From contig CABSFU010000006.1 of NCBI GenBank assembly GCA_902477075.1, positions 757 to 64,756 on the forward strand: a stretch of DNA of 64,000 bases. Reading direction: 5' to 3'. Below are positions 16,503 to 28,818 of the stretch, piece by piece; within the stretch, counting starts at the first letter, position 1, and each line of letters starts with the position of its first letter. This DNA comes from an uncultured Bacillales bacterium. GTDB lineage: Bacteria; Bacillota_I; Bacilli_A; RF39; UBA660. The position numbers were made by a program, and so were the translations under genes. Under the pieces are notes generated by a model that saw only the letters and a program-made list of their open reading frames with translations, searched no databases and had not been told where the DNA came from.

Positions 16503-16576
16503 GCAGGTGTGGTTCAATGGTAGAATGCGACCTTGCCAAGGTTGAGACGCGAGTCCGATTCTCGTCACTTGCTCCA
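16503..16576 (+). tRNA. tRNA-Gly (anticodon GCC), encoded CCA, non-canonical T-loop TCCGATT
   Basis: Acceptor GCAGGTG/CACTTGC, anticodon stem-loop CGACC-TTGCCAA-GGTTG and a 4-nt variable loop. Position 55 of the T-loop is C rather than T. Confidence 0.85.
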
Positions 16577-16577
16577 T
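16571..16577 (+). repeat. direct repeat copy 1 (GCTCCAT): tRNA-Gly 3' end, attL-like junction
   Basis: The same heptamer recurs inside CGCTCCAT at 20911-20918 and 26987-26994, each followed by a homologous module. Confidence 0.65.
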
Positions 16578-16587
16578 AAGGAAATAC

Positions 16588-16610
16588 GCTCGAACTTTTC
16601 GAGCTTTTTT
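16588..16610 (+). terminator. rho-independent terminator after tRNA-Gly
   Basis: Stem GCTCGAA / TTCGAGC followed by TTTTTT. Confidence 0.7.
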
Positions 16611-16713
16611 AATACAACTAACTCAATTTGGGTTAGTTTTTTTGTGTACCTGCTTCAACGCGCAAAGTTTGGAAGTCATACAAAGACTATCCTACAAAGA
16701 AAGGATGGTATTT

Positions 16714-16947
16714 ATGGTAAATATTATTAAGCAAGAAGTTGTTATTGAAGAATCATTAAAAAAGAAGTTAGAACTAATATGTGAGTTTTCAAATACTACT
16801 CTAAAAATCATAAATGGTAGTATAAGAAAAATTGATAGAACTAACTTAACCTATGTTGAACCACATAGAATAATAATTAATGATATAACATTCTTGCTTT
16901 TAATTATTCTAATGAGATATTTATTGAAAACCTATCTAATAAAATAA
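16714..16947 (+). CDS. conserved IME left-end small ORF (MVNIIK...), frame-shifted relative to the unit 2 homolog
   Basis: Aligns with the 21008-21289 product (NIIK, L.YV[ED]PH+..IN..TFL). After TFLL the homology (..NLS..KLSELEEY) continues in another frame. Confidence 0.5.
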   Translation: MVNIIKQEVVIEESLKKKLELICEFSNTTLKIINGSIRKIDRTNLTYVEPHRIIINDITFLLLIILMRYLLKTYLIK

Positions 16948-17086
16948 AACTATCGGAATTAGAAGAATATTTAATTTATTTAATAAAAAAGAAATTGAAA
17001 AAGCAACTAAACATATTAATGATGAAATGAATGAAGCTGCTGAAGAATTTTATAAAACGAAAAAAGACGATGGCTTAGAAAGATAA
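16943..17086 (+). pseudogene. remnant of the MobV relaxase 3' end
   Basis: Reads ..FNLFNKKEIEKATKHINDEMNEAAEEFYKTKKDDGLER*. This parallels the relaxase C-terminus FNLFNKKEIEKATKNINNEMDEYAEDFYDDKKDKEKGDGFEL* of unit 2. Confidence 0.7.
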
Positions 17087-17100
17087 GTCATCGTTTTAAA

Positions 17101-18009
17101 TTAATTAATTTTTTTACCTTTTTCATTCATAAAAGAAAGTAGTTCAGAATCTGGTTTTGATGATAATTTACCAATTAAAATATCTTTAAATTTTTCTATT
17201 ACACTTTCATTACATTTATCAACTAACTCTGGTGTTGAACAATCATATTTAGTTATAAAATCACAGAATTCATCTACTGAAACAATTATATTTTTTTCTC
17301 TACATTCAAACATATAATCCCATAACATTTTAGTAACAAAATAATTATAAGAACTATCTTGATCAGGTAAGATTGATATACCATGTTCATCTCTTGGAAT
17401 AAATAAATTAGGTATATCAAAAGAACTTGTTATTTCAGGATTTTCATCCAAGAAGTTTAAAAATTCTTCATAATGTTCTTTATTAGCAAATCTCAAAACA
17501 ATTGCATCATTTGCTGGAAATTTTCTGAATTTACATTCTCCAATTTCTTCATCAGGATGATTTTTATAAAGTCTATCTATAAATTCTTGAAGTTTAATCA
17601 TCACTTCAATATACTTTTCTGGTTTTATTGATAAGTAAGCTTTACAAAAAACATTTTTAGTATTTTTTATTGAATAGATAAAATCATCATTTTTAACCAT
17701 ATTAGTAGATGCCCTAAACCAATTAAATGAAACACTCTCTCGTCTTTCAAAAGCTCTTTTTAAACTTTCTTCATCATTTCTTGATGGAGAATATCCTCCT
17801 GGTCTTCTAATACCAAATACATTAGCACGATCAAAGAAGTCATCAAATACCAATAAATCATATTTTAAACTTCTATTTTTTGATAAATCATATTGATTAG
17901 TAATGATTTTATATAATTCATAAAATTCTTTATCATTTTCTGCAGTATCTTTATTTGTAAAGTTATTGCTAATAAAGAATTCATAATATTTATTTAAAAT
18001 CTCTTGCAT
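17101..18009 (-). CDS. hypothetical protein, 302 aa (unit 1 cargo, third gene)
   Basis: Intact ORF, last gene of the helicase operon. No TM segment and no motif I can assign with confidence. Confidence 0.7.
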   Translation of the reverse strand: MQEILNKYYEFFISNNFTNKDTAENDKEFYELYKIITNQYDLSKNRSLKYDLLVFDDFFDRANVFGIRRPGGYSPSRNDEESLKRAFERRESVSFNWFRASTNMVKNDDFIYSIKNTKNVFCKAYLSIKPEKYIEVMIKLQEFIDRLYKNHPDEEIGECKFRKFPANDAIVLRFANKEHYEEFLNFLDENPEITSSFDIPNLFIPRDEHGISILPDQDSSYNYFVTKMLWDYMFECREKNIIVSVDEFCDFITKYDCSTPELVDKCNESVIEKFKDILIGKLSSKPDSELLSFMNEKGKKIN

Positions 18010-18023
18010 ATATTTTTACCTCG

Positions 18024-18290
18024 CTATTTAATATTCTTTTCCCATATTTTTCTTACAGCTTTTAAAGATAATGTTGATAAAGTAAAACCAATTACAGGAA
18101 CAAGTGATGTTAATAATACATAATTATATTCTCTAATTAAATATGAATAAGTAATAACAATAATATAAGTTAAAATTATAATACATATCTTTCTAGTCCA
18201 ACTTGTTTCCCAAGATTTATCTAATTCGACTCTTTTATTTCTTTCTTCTATTTTTTTAATTCTTTCTTCTAAATCCATTTGAATCTCCAT
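18024..18290 (-). CDS. small membrane protein: N-terminal coiled coil plus two TM helices (unit 1 cargo)
   Basis: 88 aa. EERIKKIEERNKRVELDKSWETSWTRK is followed by two hydrophobic helices. The start overlaps the helicase 3' end by about 35 nt. GGTGG RBS. Confidence 0.65.
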   Translation of the reverse strand: MEIQMDLEERIKKIEERNKRVELDKSWETSWTRKICIIILTYIIVITYSYLIREYNYVLLTSLVPVIGFTLSTLSLKAVRKIWEKNIK

Positions 18291-26986: not shown

Positions 26987-26994
26987 CGCTCCAT
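26987..26994 (+). repeat. direct repeat copy 3 (CGCTCCAT), junction of unit 2 and unit 3
   Basis: Identical octamer to 20911-20918. Followed by a hairpin, T-run, GAAAGGA RBS and the MINIIS ORF. Confidence 0.65.
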
Positions 26995-27094
26995 TGGGAA
27001 ATCTGTTCGAACTTTTATAGTTTGAATTTAACATAGAAAAGTATCAATTTCTAAACGAAGTTGATATTTTTTTTGTTAAGAAAGGACAGATTTT

Positions 27095-27172
27095 ATGATT
27101 AATATTATTAGTAAACCATTAGAGTTTGATTATGAATTAAAAAAGAAAAAAGACAATGGTTTTGAAAGATAA
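27095..27172 (+). pseudogene. fusion remnant: left-end small ORF N-terminus joined to the relaxase C-terminus (25 aa)
   Basis: MINIISKPLEFDYELKKKKDNGFER*. The N-terminus matches M-x-NIIK. The C-terminus matches the relaxase end ..KKDKEKGDGFEL* and the unit 1 end ..KKDDGLER*. Confidence 0.55.
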
Positions 27173-27183
27173 ACCGTTGTCTT

Positions 27184-28176
27184 TTATTTTGTCCAATGTT
27201 CTTTTCTCTTTGTATTTGTATTTTCAATTTGTTTAGATATTAACTCATTAGATTTTTCTGCTGCTACTTGATGACTATTATTATCTACAAATATATAGTG
27301 TGAAATATAAATATTTCTTATCAAAGAAAATATTTCTTCTCTAGATATTTCATTAGTATTATCTTCATAATAATTTTTTAATTTTTGATATGAAAGTAAT
27401 ATTTCGTTTTTATTTTCCATATTACCAATATCACAACTAAAAAATTTGTTTAATTCAATTATTTCTTCTCTTAATTTCACATAATGTGAGTTAATAATAT
27501 TTTCTTCTGTTTCTCCAAATAATTCAATTCGCATCTTTTCAATTGTACTAACAGAATCAATTGTCTCTTTTATTTCTTCAACGGATTTATTGTCTAAAGA
27601 AATATTCCAAAATAATACAACATCTCCATCTCCACCTGAAGGGAATTGTTTATTATGATAATTATTTATATCATCAGCAGAAATTAAAGTTGCATTAAAT
27701 GTAATTGTATCATTTGCATTACTAGGAGAATCTATATATGGATCACAATGTAAACAATGTTTAATATTATCTTTATCTTTTAAAATAACTTGAAAATTAC
27801 CATGTGATGTAATTCCATTTACTTCAGTTCTTTTATATAAGAATGGTATAGATAATTCTTCACATATGAATTTCATTATAGTTGAATAGCCTTGGCACAT
27901 TGCTTTTTGAGTTAATATAGTTCCAATAATATCATGGCTAGTGTTTTTATCTTCTTCATCTTTTGGAATATTAATTATATTAATGTACATATATAAGAAT
28001 TTTTCTAATTCTGACAAGTCCCTATATTTATCATTATCCTTCAGTTTTAATTTATCTAAATTGCTAAATAAAGTGCAAAAACATTCAGCAACTTGTTCTA
28101 TTTGATTTTCAGAATAGTTAGAAGCAAATTCTAATTTATTTAATTTATTAATAAAATAATTTTTATCTTTAATCAT
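27184..28176 (-). CDS. hypothetical 330-aa transglutaminase-like protein, shorter paralog of the 576-aa unit 2 protein
   Basis: LEKFLYMYINIINIPKDEE...AMCQGYSTIMKFICEELSIPF...SHGNFQV...CDPY parallels LEKAIYIYIKMCKLLTYDEE...VCFEF...LGIHF...GHANLEF...D in the 576-aa protein. Confidence 0.65.
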   Translation of the reverse strand: MIKDKNYFINKLNKLEFASNYSENQIEQVAECFCTLFSNLDKLKLKDNDKYRDLSELEKFLYMYINIINIPKDEEDKNTSHDIIGTILTQKAMCQGYSTIMKFICEELSIPFLYKRTEVNGITSHGNFQVILKDKDNIKHCLHCDPYIDSPSNANDTITFNATLISADDINNYHNKQFPSGGDGDVVLFWNISLDNKSVEEIKETIDSVSTIEKMRIELFGETEENIINSHYVKLREEIIELNKFFSCDIGNMENKNEILLSYQKLKNYYEDNTNEISREEIFSLIRNIYISHYIFVDNNSHQVAAEKSNELISKQIENTNTKRKEHWTK

Positions 28177-28241
28177 ACTTATCCCTCCTACATTTCTCTA
28201 CATTATATCACAAGAATTCAACATTTTTACTATTTAAATTA

Positions 28242-28466
28242 CTATTTATCTTTCTCTTTATTTTCTTTAGACATATAGGCTACAGTCAAAATTATACCAA
28301 CAAGATCACATCCGATTGATAGTCCCAATAGAACGCCACTACTGAAATTACCAAAATCACTTGTTTCATTTCCACAAAAATATATATATGCTAAATATAA
28401 TAAGTTTCCTAATATAATGAATAATGTTCCTATTTTTAATTTTTTCACAAAATACCTCACTTTCAC
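28242..28466 (-). CDS. small membrane protein, 74 aa, two TM helices
   Basis: Two hydrophobic helices (LFIILGNLLYLAYIYF and GVLLGLSIGCDLVGIILTVAY). Confidence 0.5.
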   Translation of the reverse strand: MKVRYFVKKLKIGTLFIILGNLLYLAYIYFCGNETSDFGNFSSGVLLGLSIGCDLVGIILTVAYMSKENKEKDK

Positions 28467-28473
28467 TTAAACA

Positions 28474-28665
28474 TCAATCTTTTTTTAGATTTTTTTTGAA
28501 TACCAATATTGCTTTTGCAGAATTAGTTGTAGACATTGTTACTAATTCATATCCATTTTCTATCATTTCATTAGATTTTTTTTCTACTTTTTTTGCCATG
28601 GTGTCTGTCTTTGGGGAATACTCTATAATAACAGTTTTATACATTTTTTCTACACATCCTAACAC
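28474..28665 (-). CDS. small protein, 63 aa, DUF4177-like pattern
   Basis: YKTVIIEY...NEMIENGYELVTM...ILVFKK resembles the small DUF4177 fold. This is a weak call. Confidence 0.4.
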   Translation of the reverse strand: MLGCVEKMYKTVIIEYSPKTDTMAKKVEKKSNEMIENGYELVTMSTTNSAKAILVFKKNLKKD

Positions 28666-28818
28666 ATAATAAACTAATAAATTATTATTTATATTATTTA
28701 TTATAAAAAGAATTATGTTCTATTAAGTAAGCATTATTAATTTTGACGATATCATTCATAACTACTGATTTTGAAATTTTCATTTCAATTTTTGTCATAA
28801 TCGATCATTTTCCTAAAA

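Follow-up and report, generated by a model that had tools for sequence, protein, structure and literature searches.

Among integrative mobilizable elements (IMEs) that move by means of a serine recombinase, Tn4451, with its recombinase TnpX and a MobV relaxase, is the only well-studied one, and it shows low target specificity, with 2-bp identity (PMC5704250). Site-specific serine-recombinase IMEs disrupt dispensable genes, and both tandem accretion and cis-mobilizable elements (CIMEs) are already known (PMC5704250); tandems and remnants are also abundant in Faecalibacterium (PMC12084326). Here we analyze a 64,000-nt stretch of DNA from an uncultured Bacillales bacterium (the window; all positions below are those of the window), in which a segment at 16572-28811 (the island) begins with the last bases of a tRNA-Gly gene. 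The initial annotation of this DNA read the island as three related IMEs accreted in tandem at the tRNA, and independent copies of the element and tandem arrays elsewhere, described below, support this. We consider it highly likely that the island arose by tandem accretion of three members of one IME family driven by a large serine recombinase (LSR).

The clostridial elements Tn4451 and Tn4453 (TnpX, TnpZ) resemble the window family in combining an LSR with a Mob_Pre/MobV relaxase, in having no conjugation-pore genes, in their small size and in their accessory cargo, and TnpV is also encoded by a sister subfamily found here. However, the low specificity of Tn4451 contrasts with the specificity of the window family for tRNA 3' ends of the form C(T/A)CCA, where the target is left undisrupted, and the window family is further set apart by its conserved small open reading frame (ORF), its pair of left-end terminators and the leader that precedes the LSR gene. 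In accretion of the ICESt1/ICESt3 type, an incoming element uses an attachment (att) site flanking a resident one, and units 1 and 3 of the island fit such accretion and the CIMEs known from it. Like CIMEs, and like the Faecalibacterium remnants (PMC12084326), these derivatives lose recombination and transfer genes and keep att sites and cargo. Described accretion at the 3' ends of tRNA and other genes uses tyrosine integrases, whereas a serine recombinase is encoded here. The tRNA islands of tyrosine integrases (NBU1 at tRNA-Leu, P4-like and phage-inducible chromosomal island-like) likewise integrate at tRNA 3' ends, re-supply the end and form hotspots with variable cargo, but they rely on an identity segment of 15-50 nt, in contrast to a 5-nt core here, where one recombinase clade is found on at least 12 isoacceptors.

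The staphylococcal cassette chromosome elements SCC and SCCmec, with their Ccr recombinases and rlmH/orfX target, also use a serine recombinase to insert at the 3' end of a conserved gene without inactivating it, leaving short direct repeats at each junction, and their arrays include recombinase-less pseudo-elements with varied cargo, much like the array in the window. SCC differs in having a single protein-gene target, as against many tRNAs, and in lacking a relaxase, and there is no sign that the window LSR is Ccr-like. The array itself is a known kind of structure, IMEs and tandem accretion being established. Its variant features are an LSR that acts non-disruptively at the 3' ends of many tRNA isoacceptors, where the 5-nt core agrees with the discriminator base, and, carried on the element itself, tandem terminators, the small ORF and the leader. 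A serine-recombinase clade here appears to do a job normally credited to tyrosine integrases, namely non-disruptive insertion at tRNA 3' ends, and the interest of the finding lies mainly in the att-site logic of the family and in its uncharacterised cargo.

The island at tRNA-Gly and its three units

The features of the island and its borders are as follows.

16423-16496, plus strand: tRNA-Cys, just upstream of tRNA-Gly
16503-16576, plus strand: tRNA-Gly(GCC), the integration target (ARAGORN, Rfam tRNA); its last 5 nt, CTCCA (16572-16576), are the core of junction 1
16577-16713, plus strand: left end of unit 1, two intrinsic terminators and a GAAAGG ribosome-binding site
16714-16969, plus strand: small ORF of unit 1 (MVNIIK...), broken by a 1-nt deletion
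16970-17086, plus strand: relaxase remnant of unit 1, the last 36 MobV codons, with a hairpin across the stop codon
17101-20745, minus strand: cargo operon of unit 1, of which the same set lies behind an intact MobV in locus L137
17101-18009, minus strand: 302-aa cargo protein, no family match
18024-18290, minus strand: 88-aa hydrophobic (putative membrane) cargo protein
18256-20745, minus strand: 829-aa superfamily 2 (SF2) helicase with C-terminal repeats (ResIII, Helicase_C; PHROG DNA helicase)
20882-20917, plus strand: right end of unit 1 (P arm, GTTGTAAAT...ATCG) and junction 2 core CTCCA (20913-20917)
20918-21289, plus strand: left end of unit 2 (two hairpins, T-run) and intact 93-aa small ORF (21008-21289)
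21311-21501, plus strand: leader of the recombinase gene (promoter-like site, leader ORF, hairpin)
21502-23340, plus strand: LSR pseudogene (PF00239, PF07508, PF13408; Resolvase, Recombinase, Zn_ribbon_recom)
23341-23532, plus strand: candidate origin-of-transfer (oriT) region, inverted repeats at 23411-23429, 23435-23457 and 23466-23513
23533-24847, plus strand: MobV (Mob_Pre) relaxase pseudogene, followed by a terminator hairpin at 24850-24878
24871-26828, minus strand: cargo of unit 2, 76-aa (24871-25101) and 576-aa (25098-26828) proteins
26958-26993, plus strand: right end of unit 2 (GTTTCAAAT...ATCG) and junction 3 core CTCCA (26989-26993)
26994-27172, plus strand: left end of unit 3 (hairpin region, T-run, ribosome-binding site) and fused mini-ORF (27095-27172)
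27184-28665, minus strand: cargo of unit 3
27184-28176, minus strand: 330-aa protein, predicted to be transglutaminase-like
28242-28466, minus strand: 74-aa hydrophobic (putative membrane) protein
28474-28665, minus strand: possible 63-aa ORF
28773-28811, plus strand: degenerate right end of unit 3 and of the array (TTTCAAT...AATCGATCAT), resembling family right ends
28817-29656, minus strand: right-flank 4Fe-4S (Fer4_5) gene, broken here

The initial annotation had placed the tRNA end GCTCCAT at 16571-16577, its recurrences as CGCTCCAT at 20911-20918 and 26987-26994, a degenerate copy, AATCGATCATTTT, at 28799-28811, and small-ORF starts at 16714, 21008 and 27095, and all of these positions are correct in the sequence. 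The 8-mer CGCTCCAT occurs three times in the window against 0.23 expected, and none of 100 shuffles reached three copies. Similarity between the units extends well past this 8-mer, in stretches of 37-98 nt at 70-87% identity: 16560-16606 matches 26977-27023 (72%), 20889-20925 matches 26965-27001 (73%), 16697-16766 matches 27078-27147 (70%) and 17054-17102 matches 27140-27188 (78%). The longest of them is the relaxase-tail repeat of 16970-17067 and 24719-24816 (98 nt, 87%), and the 38/38-nt identity first noticed between 16970-17007 and 24719-24756 forms its beginning. The two hairpins that follow tRNA-Gly (16588-16604 and 16616-16638), each with a T-run, score as intrinsic terminators, and 11 terminator-like sites are present in the region against 2.1 expected. 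A search of the window with a composite left-end pattern, which was overly strict, returned no match. The third copy of CGCTCCAT, at 34995-35002 (in fact ATCGCTCCAT), lies within a TetR-family gene (34683-35240); no hairpins, small ORF or module are found there, and we treat it as a chance occurrence rather than a junction. In principle it could be a pseudo-att site.

Unit 2 was initially described as carrying an LSR and a MobV relaxase, and the Pfam domains bear this out: the relaxase matches PF01076 (Mob_Pre) with an E-value of 5e-13, above the Pfam cut-off, along with an NCBIfam MobV match below its cut-off. Unseen in that first description, unit 2 is itself defective in both genes. The LSR gene has an in-frame TAA at 22285-22287, where the intact 612-aa homologues have CAA (Gln), and this TAA is also present in another sample's assembly (L050/L057). 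The relaxase gene has a +1 frameshift in an A8 run (24493-24500) that is A7 in six other strains, five of them with an intact 437-aa relaxase and one (L050/L057) with the gene split elsewhere. No island ORF that was scanned with Pfam, the 63-aa one at 28474-28665 included, matched a conjugation-pore family. From its position upstream of the MobV gene, the region at 23341-23532 is a candidate for oriT. The leader of the LSR gene contains a strong promoter-like site (21311-21338, TTGACA-16-TATTAT with TG), an ORF of 25 codons (21383-21460) and, just before the ATG at 21502, a conserved 16-bp hairpin with a T-run (about 21431-21481). This layout is kept upstream of LSRs that are 55-98% identical, with compensatory changes at 9/23 predicted pairs, and the leader looks like a leader-peptide transcription attenuator that would control recombinase expression.

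The segment 24510-27003, which spans the relaxase tail, the genes of the 76- and 576-aa proteins and the right end, is 99% identical to a unit that lies at tRNA-Gly(TCC) of another genome (L120) and is, in its turn, a deletion derivative. Its sharing of the unit 2 cargo is only an indirect hint that such derivatives may be mobilized by a related functional element. At tRNA-Cys of a further species of Bacilli, the 576- and 74-aa pair was also observed next to a relic of MobV. The right end of unit 2 is of the same type as, and nearly identical to, that of the element carrying the LSR sequence P0120 (described below). No homology was found between the 576-aa cargo protein and the 648-aa cargo protein of the P0120 element, even though the right ends are identical, which supports a true variable slot at the cargo position.

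In unit 1, the left end is nearly identical to that of the P0120 element in other genomes, as is the small ORF to its counterpart. The lesion in this ORF is a run of two T residues in the window in place of three in other strains; two are also found in L058. The small ORF meets the relaxase tail at a TTTAA microhomology. A fusion of this kind had been described initially with about 35 relaxase codons; the fusion stands, with the correction that it comprises the whole small ORF (less 1 nt) and 36 codons, so that the deletion runs from the 3' end of the small ORF to about relaxase codon 400. The segment 16955-20786, containing the relaxase tail and the genes of the 302-, 88- and 829-aa proteins, is 98% identical to L137, in which unit 1-type cargo lies behind an intact 440-aa MobV. 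Unit 1 is thus a one-deletion derivative of an L137-like element, and units 1 and 3 are, as first described, internal-deletion derivatives. As a CIME or accretion remnant, unit 1 extends from the core at 16572 to the core ending at 20917 and is without an LSR, an oriT or a whole relaxase.

Unit 3 likewise extends, as such a remnant, from the core at 26989 to the degenerate right end and lacks the LSR, the oriT and a whole relaxase. Its mini-ORF had been described as seven N-terminal codons fused to about ten relaxase codons, of which the seven are correct and the relaxase tail amounts to about 17; a terminator hairpin (27148-27185) follows. The copy at 28799-28811 matches the family right end at about 20/30 positions with two 1-nt gaps, by a hand count on the alignment. 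That each unit has a different leftward cargo operon, as first observed, holds fully, the cargo being wholly different between the units.

The window is a scaffold of a metagenome of human-gut type (ENA ERZ28622187, scaffold_62), with a G+C content of 26%. A LytR-CpsA-Psr gene is the left neighbour of the tRNA pair, and to the right of about 28811 lie the 4Fe-4S gene and genes for a P-type ATPase, an epimerase, a TetR protein and rpoC. An Rfam scan of the island yielded the two tRNAs and nothing else. The nearest genomes in the species collection are metagenome-assembled genomes (MAGs) of uncultured Bacilli, and a scan of the contigs of this collection found no conspecific genome, the flanking LytR protein being 53% identical to the best match. 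Exact-protein look-ups with the flanking LytR protein and the P-type ATPase gave matches from the window's own sample only. The Fer4_5 gene is split into several ORFs in the window strain and in L048, L049, L051 and L052, whereas L050 and L053 have it intact (279 aa); the L058 copy is cut off at about 29525 by the same deletion or rearrangement through which units 2 and 3 were lost. In the related MAGs L005, L007, L008 and L009, contigs end at, or within about 50-300 nt of, the tRNA-Cys/tRNA-Gly pair, as is expected if the locus is repeat-rich or variable there.

Independent copies and att-site logic of the family

With its stop read as Gln, the LSR of unit 2 has very numerous homologues, and the best 120 homologue clusters are intact 612-aa proteins of 85-88% identity, nearly all of them unannotated. 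One of these sequences, P0120, occurs in identical form in at least six different chromosomal contexts, as part of an element with a constant content, in which the small ORF (94 aa) and a 236-aa gene precede the LSR, a 441-aa MobV comes after it and a 648-aa gene is convergent. Similarity among these copies starts exactly after the CTCCA of tRNA-Gly(GCC) in L043, of tRNA-Gly(TCC) in L046 and L047, and of tRNA-Cys in L042 and L044, and in L041 it starts after the end of a preceding element. The right boundary is constant as well (...TTATCTATCGCTCCA / ...ATCGCTCCA), and a different sequence follows beyond the right junction of L047 (CTCCA|GATTG). Copies of the module independent of the window therefore exist, and their ends coincide with element boundaries in other genomes, so that the reading survives the refutation test set in the initial annotation.

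For a survey of the family, a metagenome scan with P0120 provided 80 loci at 44-100% identity, which were processed by script together with the earlier loci. A small ORF is present within 1.5 kb upstream of 33 of the 38 distinct LSRs, and this ORF, with 228 representative clusters, belongs to no Pfam family. MobV follows the LSR in 26/31 distinct cases and TnpV takes its place in 2/31. The 37 non-redundant tRNA-adjacent left junctions are on 12 isoacceptors, with hits on Gly(GCC, TCC), Cys(GCA), Thr(GGT, CGT, TGT), Leu(CAA, TAA, TAG, GAG) and Phe(GAA). All 37 lie at a tRNA 3' end with CTCCA or CACCA, and not at a GA dinucleotide as in the low-specificity insertion of the Tn4451 type; every other junction abuts another element. 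Tandem arrays with at least two junctions were found at 17 non-redundant loci. The plasmid collection holds no close relative of the LSR, its best match being 33% identical over about half the length, and a limited search of the literature on serine recombinases acting at tRNA genes yielded no account of this family. The family is widespread and apparently undescribed. It is very common among the poorly studied low-GC Bacilli and other Firmicutes of human-gut metagenomes and may form a hidden platform for gene exchange there.

The second base of the core equals the discriminator base of the tRNA, being T for Gly and Cys and A for Leu, Thr and Phe: CTCCA is the core at Gly, Cys and one Thr(CGT) gene, and CACCA at Leu, Phe and the other Thr genes. 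In 17/17 arrays the same core is found at every junction. The LSR P0087 is 98% identical to P0120, yet the two use different cores, that of tRNA-Leu as against tRNA-Gly/Cys; the P0087 element is located at tRNA-Leu(CAA) with the junction GGCACCA|TAAGG, and the right ends of the two elements differ at the discriminator position (ATCGCACCA versus ATCGCTCCA, A versus T) and at one base about 30 nt upstream. The crossover dinucleotide thus probably contains or abuts the discriminator base, to judge from the aligned junctions, and a base match at the discriminator would then be required because the central dinucleotides of serine-recombinase sites must be identical. Such a discriminator-matched core would be a simple, testable rule for retargeting LSRs, of possible practical value, as LSRs are genome-engineering tools.

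A motif resembling the T-loop of tRNA (GTTTCAAAT, GTTGTAAAT and TCGTAAAC) is common to the right ends of several subfamilies and lies at a fixed distance, about 20 nt, from the core. Within the first hairpin of the left ends, at about +14 to +19, is TCGAAC, the reverse complement of the T-loop sequence GTTCGA, and attP therefore looks like an imperfect palindrome centred near the discriminator. The right-arm motif is suggestive, and it is not universal. The sister subfamily (L041, 645-8640; L042, 15532-18730) shares the left-end design and the small ORF (MIKIIKKK...), but TnpV and a NikA-like protein accompany its LSR where MobV would otherwise stand; among its cargo are a PIN-TPR-GreABC protein, a protein of the beta-lactamase family and an acetyltransferase.

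Strain polymorphism and the origin of the array

Identical 330-aa cargo proteins occur with the same flanks on contigs from other samples, and DNA comparison at about 99% flank identity reveals several alleles of the array among strains. L050/L057 has the units in the order 1-2-3, as in the window, and L049, L052 and L053 are consistent with this order as far as they reach. L048 is identical up to the junction at 26985, beyond which a hybrid LSR pseudogene, fused to the tail of a relaxase, precedes 4.9 kb of different cargo (719, 126 and 288 aa) with the right end ...AATTGCTCCA. L051 is without the helicase unit; it combines a small ORF of unit 1 type and a 241-aa gene with an LSR of 87% identity, an intact MobV and the cargo of unit 2. 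L058 lacks units 2 and 3 and has a unit 1 with an additional 314-aa gene and a right end of the P0120 type; another element's right end, not a tRNA, lies upstream of unit 1, and a solo left-end remnant follows it, joined to the truncated 4Fe-4S gene. Site-specific insertion, homologous recombination between units and deletion thus all contribute to the turnover of the locus. Three small lesions are present in the element genes of the window (T3>T2, CAA>TAA, A7>A8), two of them changes of homopolymer length, and these may reflect either real decay or errors in an assembly of low coverage.

The related species L006, on a 253-kb contig, has a 75-bp solo remnant (9590-9680) with two terminator hairpins directly after tRNA-Gly, followed by a RodA/FtsW gene, and there the element-derived terminators seem to have become the terminators of the tRNA operon. 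It was considered as an empty site and rejected, its hairpins being nearly identical to the left end of the element of LSR/TnpV/NikA type (L041, L042) and its right flank not being syntenic.

In these comparisons, an intact member of the family has, in order, a left end that re-supplies the last tRNA bases (N73-CCA) and brings a pair of intrinsic terminators, the conserved small ORF (about 93 aa), the 612-aa LSR gene preceded by its putative leader-peptide/terminator leader, a candidate oriT region with a MobV relaxase, variable cargo that is mostly convergent in the clade closest to the window, and a right end with the T-loop-like motif about 20 nt from the core. The LSR would recombine attP with the 3' end of the tRNA gene inside the 5-nt core C(T/A)CCA, leaving the tRNA intact. 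As the core is kept in attL and attR, further elements could enter beside residents and build arrays, and internal deletions and point lesions would then strip the mobility genes while the cargo is kept. All three units are defective here, and the array is therefore frozen, so that any movement would need help in trans.

Several points weigh against this account of the island. It is a sequence-based inference drawn throughout from metagenome assemblies, and an unoccupied tRNA-Gly site was not found in the species of the window: a direct joining of tRNA-Gly to the sequence right of about 28810, which the initial annotation had proposed to look for, is absent among the strains examined, and L006, the one related genome represented by a long contig, differs in its right flank and itself holds the 75-bp element remnant. 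The degenerate right boundary at 28799-28811 is the weakest element of the array. The mosaic alleles L048 and L051 indicate homologous recombination between units, so that not every difference is site-specific. For the att sites, the crossover position rests on a correlation, and a simple right-arm regular expression matched 12/29 distinct non-tRNA junction arms and 0/30 tRNA arms in that register.

The shared architecture and short identical stretches of the units, together with the homologous recombination seen in the mosaic alleles, could also be explained if segments of a single island had been duplicated locally and had then diverged, or had undergone gene conversion. We regard this as very unlikely, given that units 1 and 2 have small ORFs of only 36% identity, that the cargo is wholly different between units and that arrays of the same family occur at other tRNAs. 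Moreover, the closest relatives of the units are in other genomes (L137 at 98% for unit 1 and L120 at 99% for the cargo of unit 2), the right end of unit 2 is that of the P0120 element, and the left end of unit 3 resembles that of the second unit of L043; pairwise identities already point to a grouping of the units with the elements of other genomes. Placing the array in a chromosomal defence or variable hotspot kept up by host recombination, with the LSR and Mob genes as passengers and CTCCA and the hairpins as a terminator feature of the host tRNA, would account for the two similar hairpins that directly follow tRNA-Gly in L006 without element genes. However, these hairpins match the left end of the LSR/TnpV/NikA type in L041 and L042 almost exactly and are hence an element remnant, and the left end of unit 1 is nearly identical to that of the P0120 element in unrelated genomes at different tRNAs, which makes such an origin highly improbable.

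Still less credible is an assembly artefact, in which contigs would have been joined chimerically at shared repeats. The window is indeed a metagenome scaffold, several related contigs break at the tRNA, and several lesions in the window are of the homopolymer type. However, the order of units 1-2-3 recurs at about 99% identity across the junctions in independent assemblies from other samples (L049, L050/L057, L053), contigs of a second assembler from the same reads (L004, L059) cover parts of the array, and the repeats shared at the junctions, of about 10-50 nt, are shorter than the reads.

Returning to accretion of a single IME family, we tentatively put forward a broader reading, to which we give somewhat less than even credence, of a large, gut-abundant and hitherto undescribed family of serine-recombinase IMEs that are tRNA generalists. 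In this family the recombinase would read the T-loop-like motif and the acceptor end, with the discriminator base in the crossover dinucleotide, and a single base change in attP (CT to CA) would retarget a near-identical recombinase from tRNAs with U73 (Gly, Cys) to those with A73 (Leu, Thr, Phe). The terminator pair of the element would replace the displaced terminator of the tRNA, recombinase-less deletion derivatives would serve as cassettes of exchangeable cargo at the ends of tRNA genes, in loose analogy to SCC or to the cassettes of integrons, and the cargo would include new transglutaminase-like and helicase-based conflict systems.

Cargo of the island and of the family

Sequence searches of the window cargo against solved structures, PHROGs, NCBIfam and PADLOC found nothing informative beyond a generic helicase core. 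The PADLOC matches, partial ones to the PbeA and type IV restriction helicase models, were confined to this core in the 829-aa protein, and no meaningful match was obtained for the 302-, 576-, 330-, 88-, 76- and 74-aa proteins. The 330-aa protein has 51 homologues, one with the Pfam domain Transglut_core (PF01841), and invariant Cys, His and Asp residues, with a conserved Cys94. Its structural model (predicted local distance difference test score, pLDDT, of 92.7) matched in Foldseek searches the TglA protein of S. pyogenes (9crn, E-value 3.8e-4), a putative cysteine protease (3isr), the transglutaminase 4xz7 and LapG; a literature search found no paper on the function of TglA. Taken alone, the 330-aa protein is transglutaminase-like by its modelled fold and its conserved Cys, His and Asp. 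The 576-aa protein belongs to a family of 486 hypothetical proteins with C315, H349 and D364 invariant, and its AlphaFold model (pLDDT 82.8) has weak fold matches (best E-value 0.13) that are enriched for the transglutaminase/NAT/vasohibin superfamily, so that it too may be transglutaminase-like, with weak fold evidence. Homology between the 576- and 330-aa proteins was considered on the basis of a BLASTP match (E-value 0.09) aligned only around the putative catalytic Cys, which is insufficient alone. The cargo genes are intact and conserved and the adjacent mobility genes decayed, which suggests that selection retains the cargo, without specifying its function.

The 109 cargo ORFs of the family form 83 clusters, of which 66 are singletons, and 70 cargo representatives were searched with Pfam and PADLOC. 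Besides GNAT acetyltransferases, the cargo includes a van-like set (D-Ala-D-Ala ligase, alanine racemase, VanW, VanZ), an APH phosphotransferase, a choloylglycine (bile-salt) hydrolase and an ABC/FtsX transporter, as well as GajA/OLD-like ATPases, a PLD-like protein, a DUF3800 protein and MADS-like matches. A seven-gene cluster in L136 (9817-16411) is the likely source of the van-type matches. The cargo slot is truly variable across the family. Its designation as the likeliest home of a defence or competition system holds in part: defence-like genes are present, but so are resistance and metabolic genes, as in a general accessory slot, and a defence role of the window's own cargo is unproven, no function having been demonstrated for it. 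The family carries vancomycin-type, aminoglycoside and bile-salt-hydrolase genes alongside the defence-like ones and may spread resistance and gut-adaptation genes, and the 576-aa protein, the 330-aa protein and the helicase/302-aa set of the window are candidates for new host-beneficial or conflict functions.

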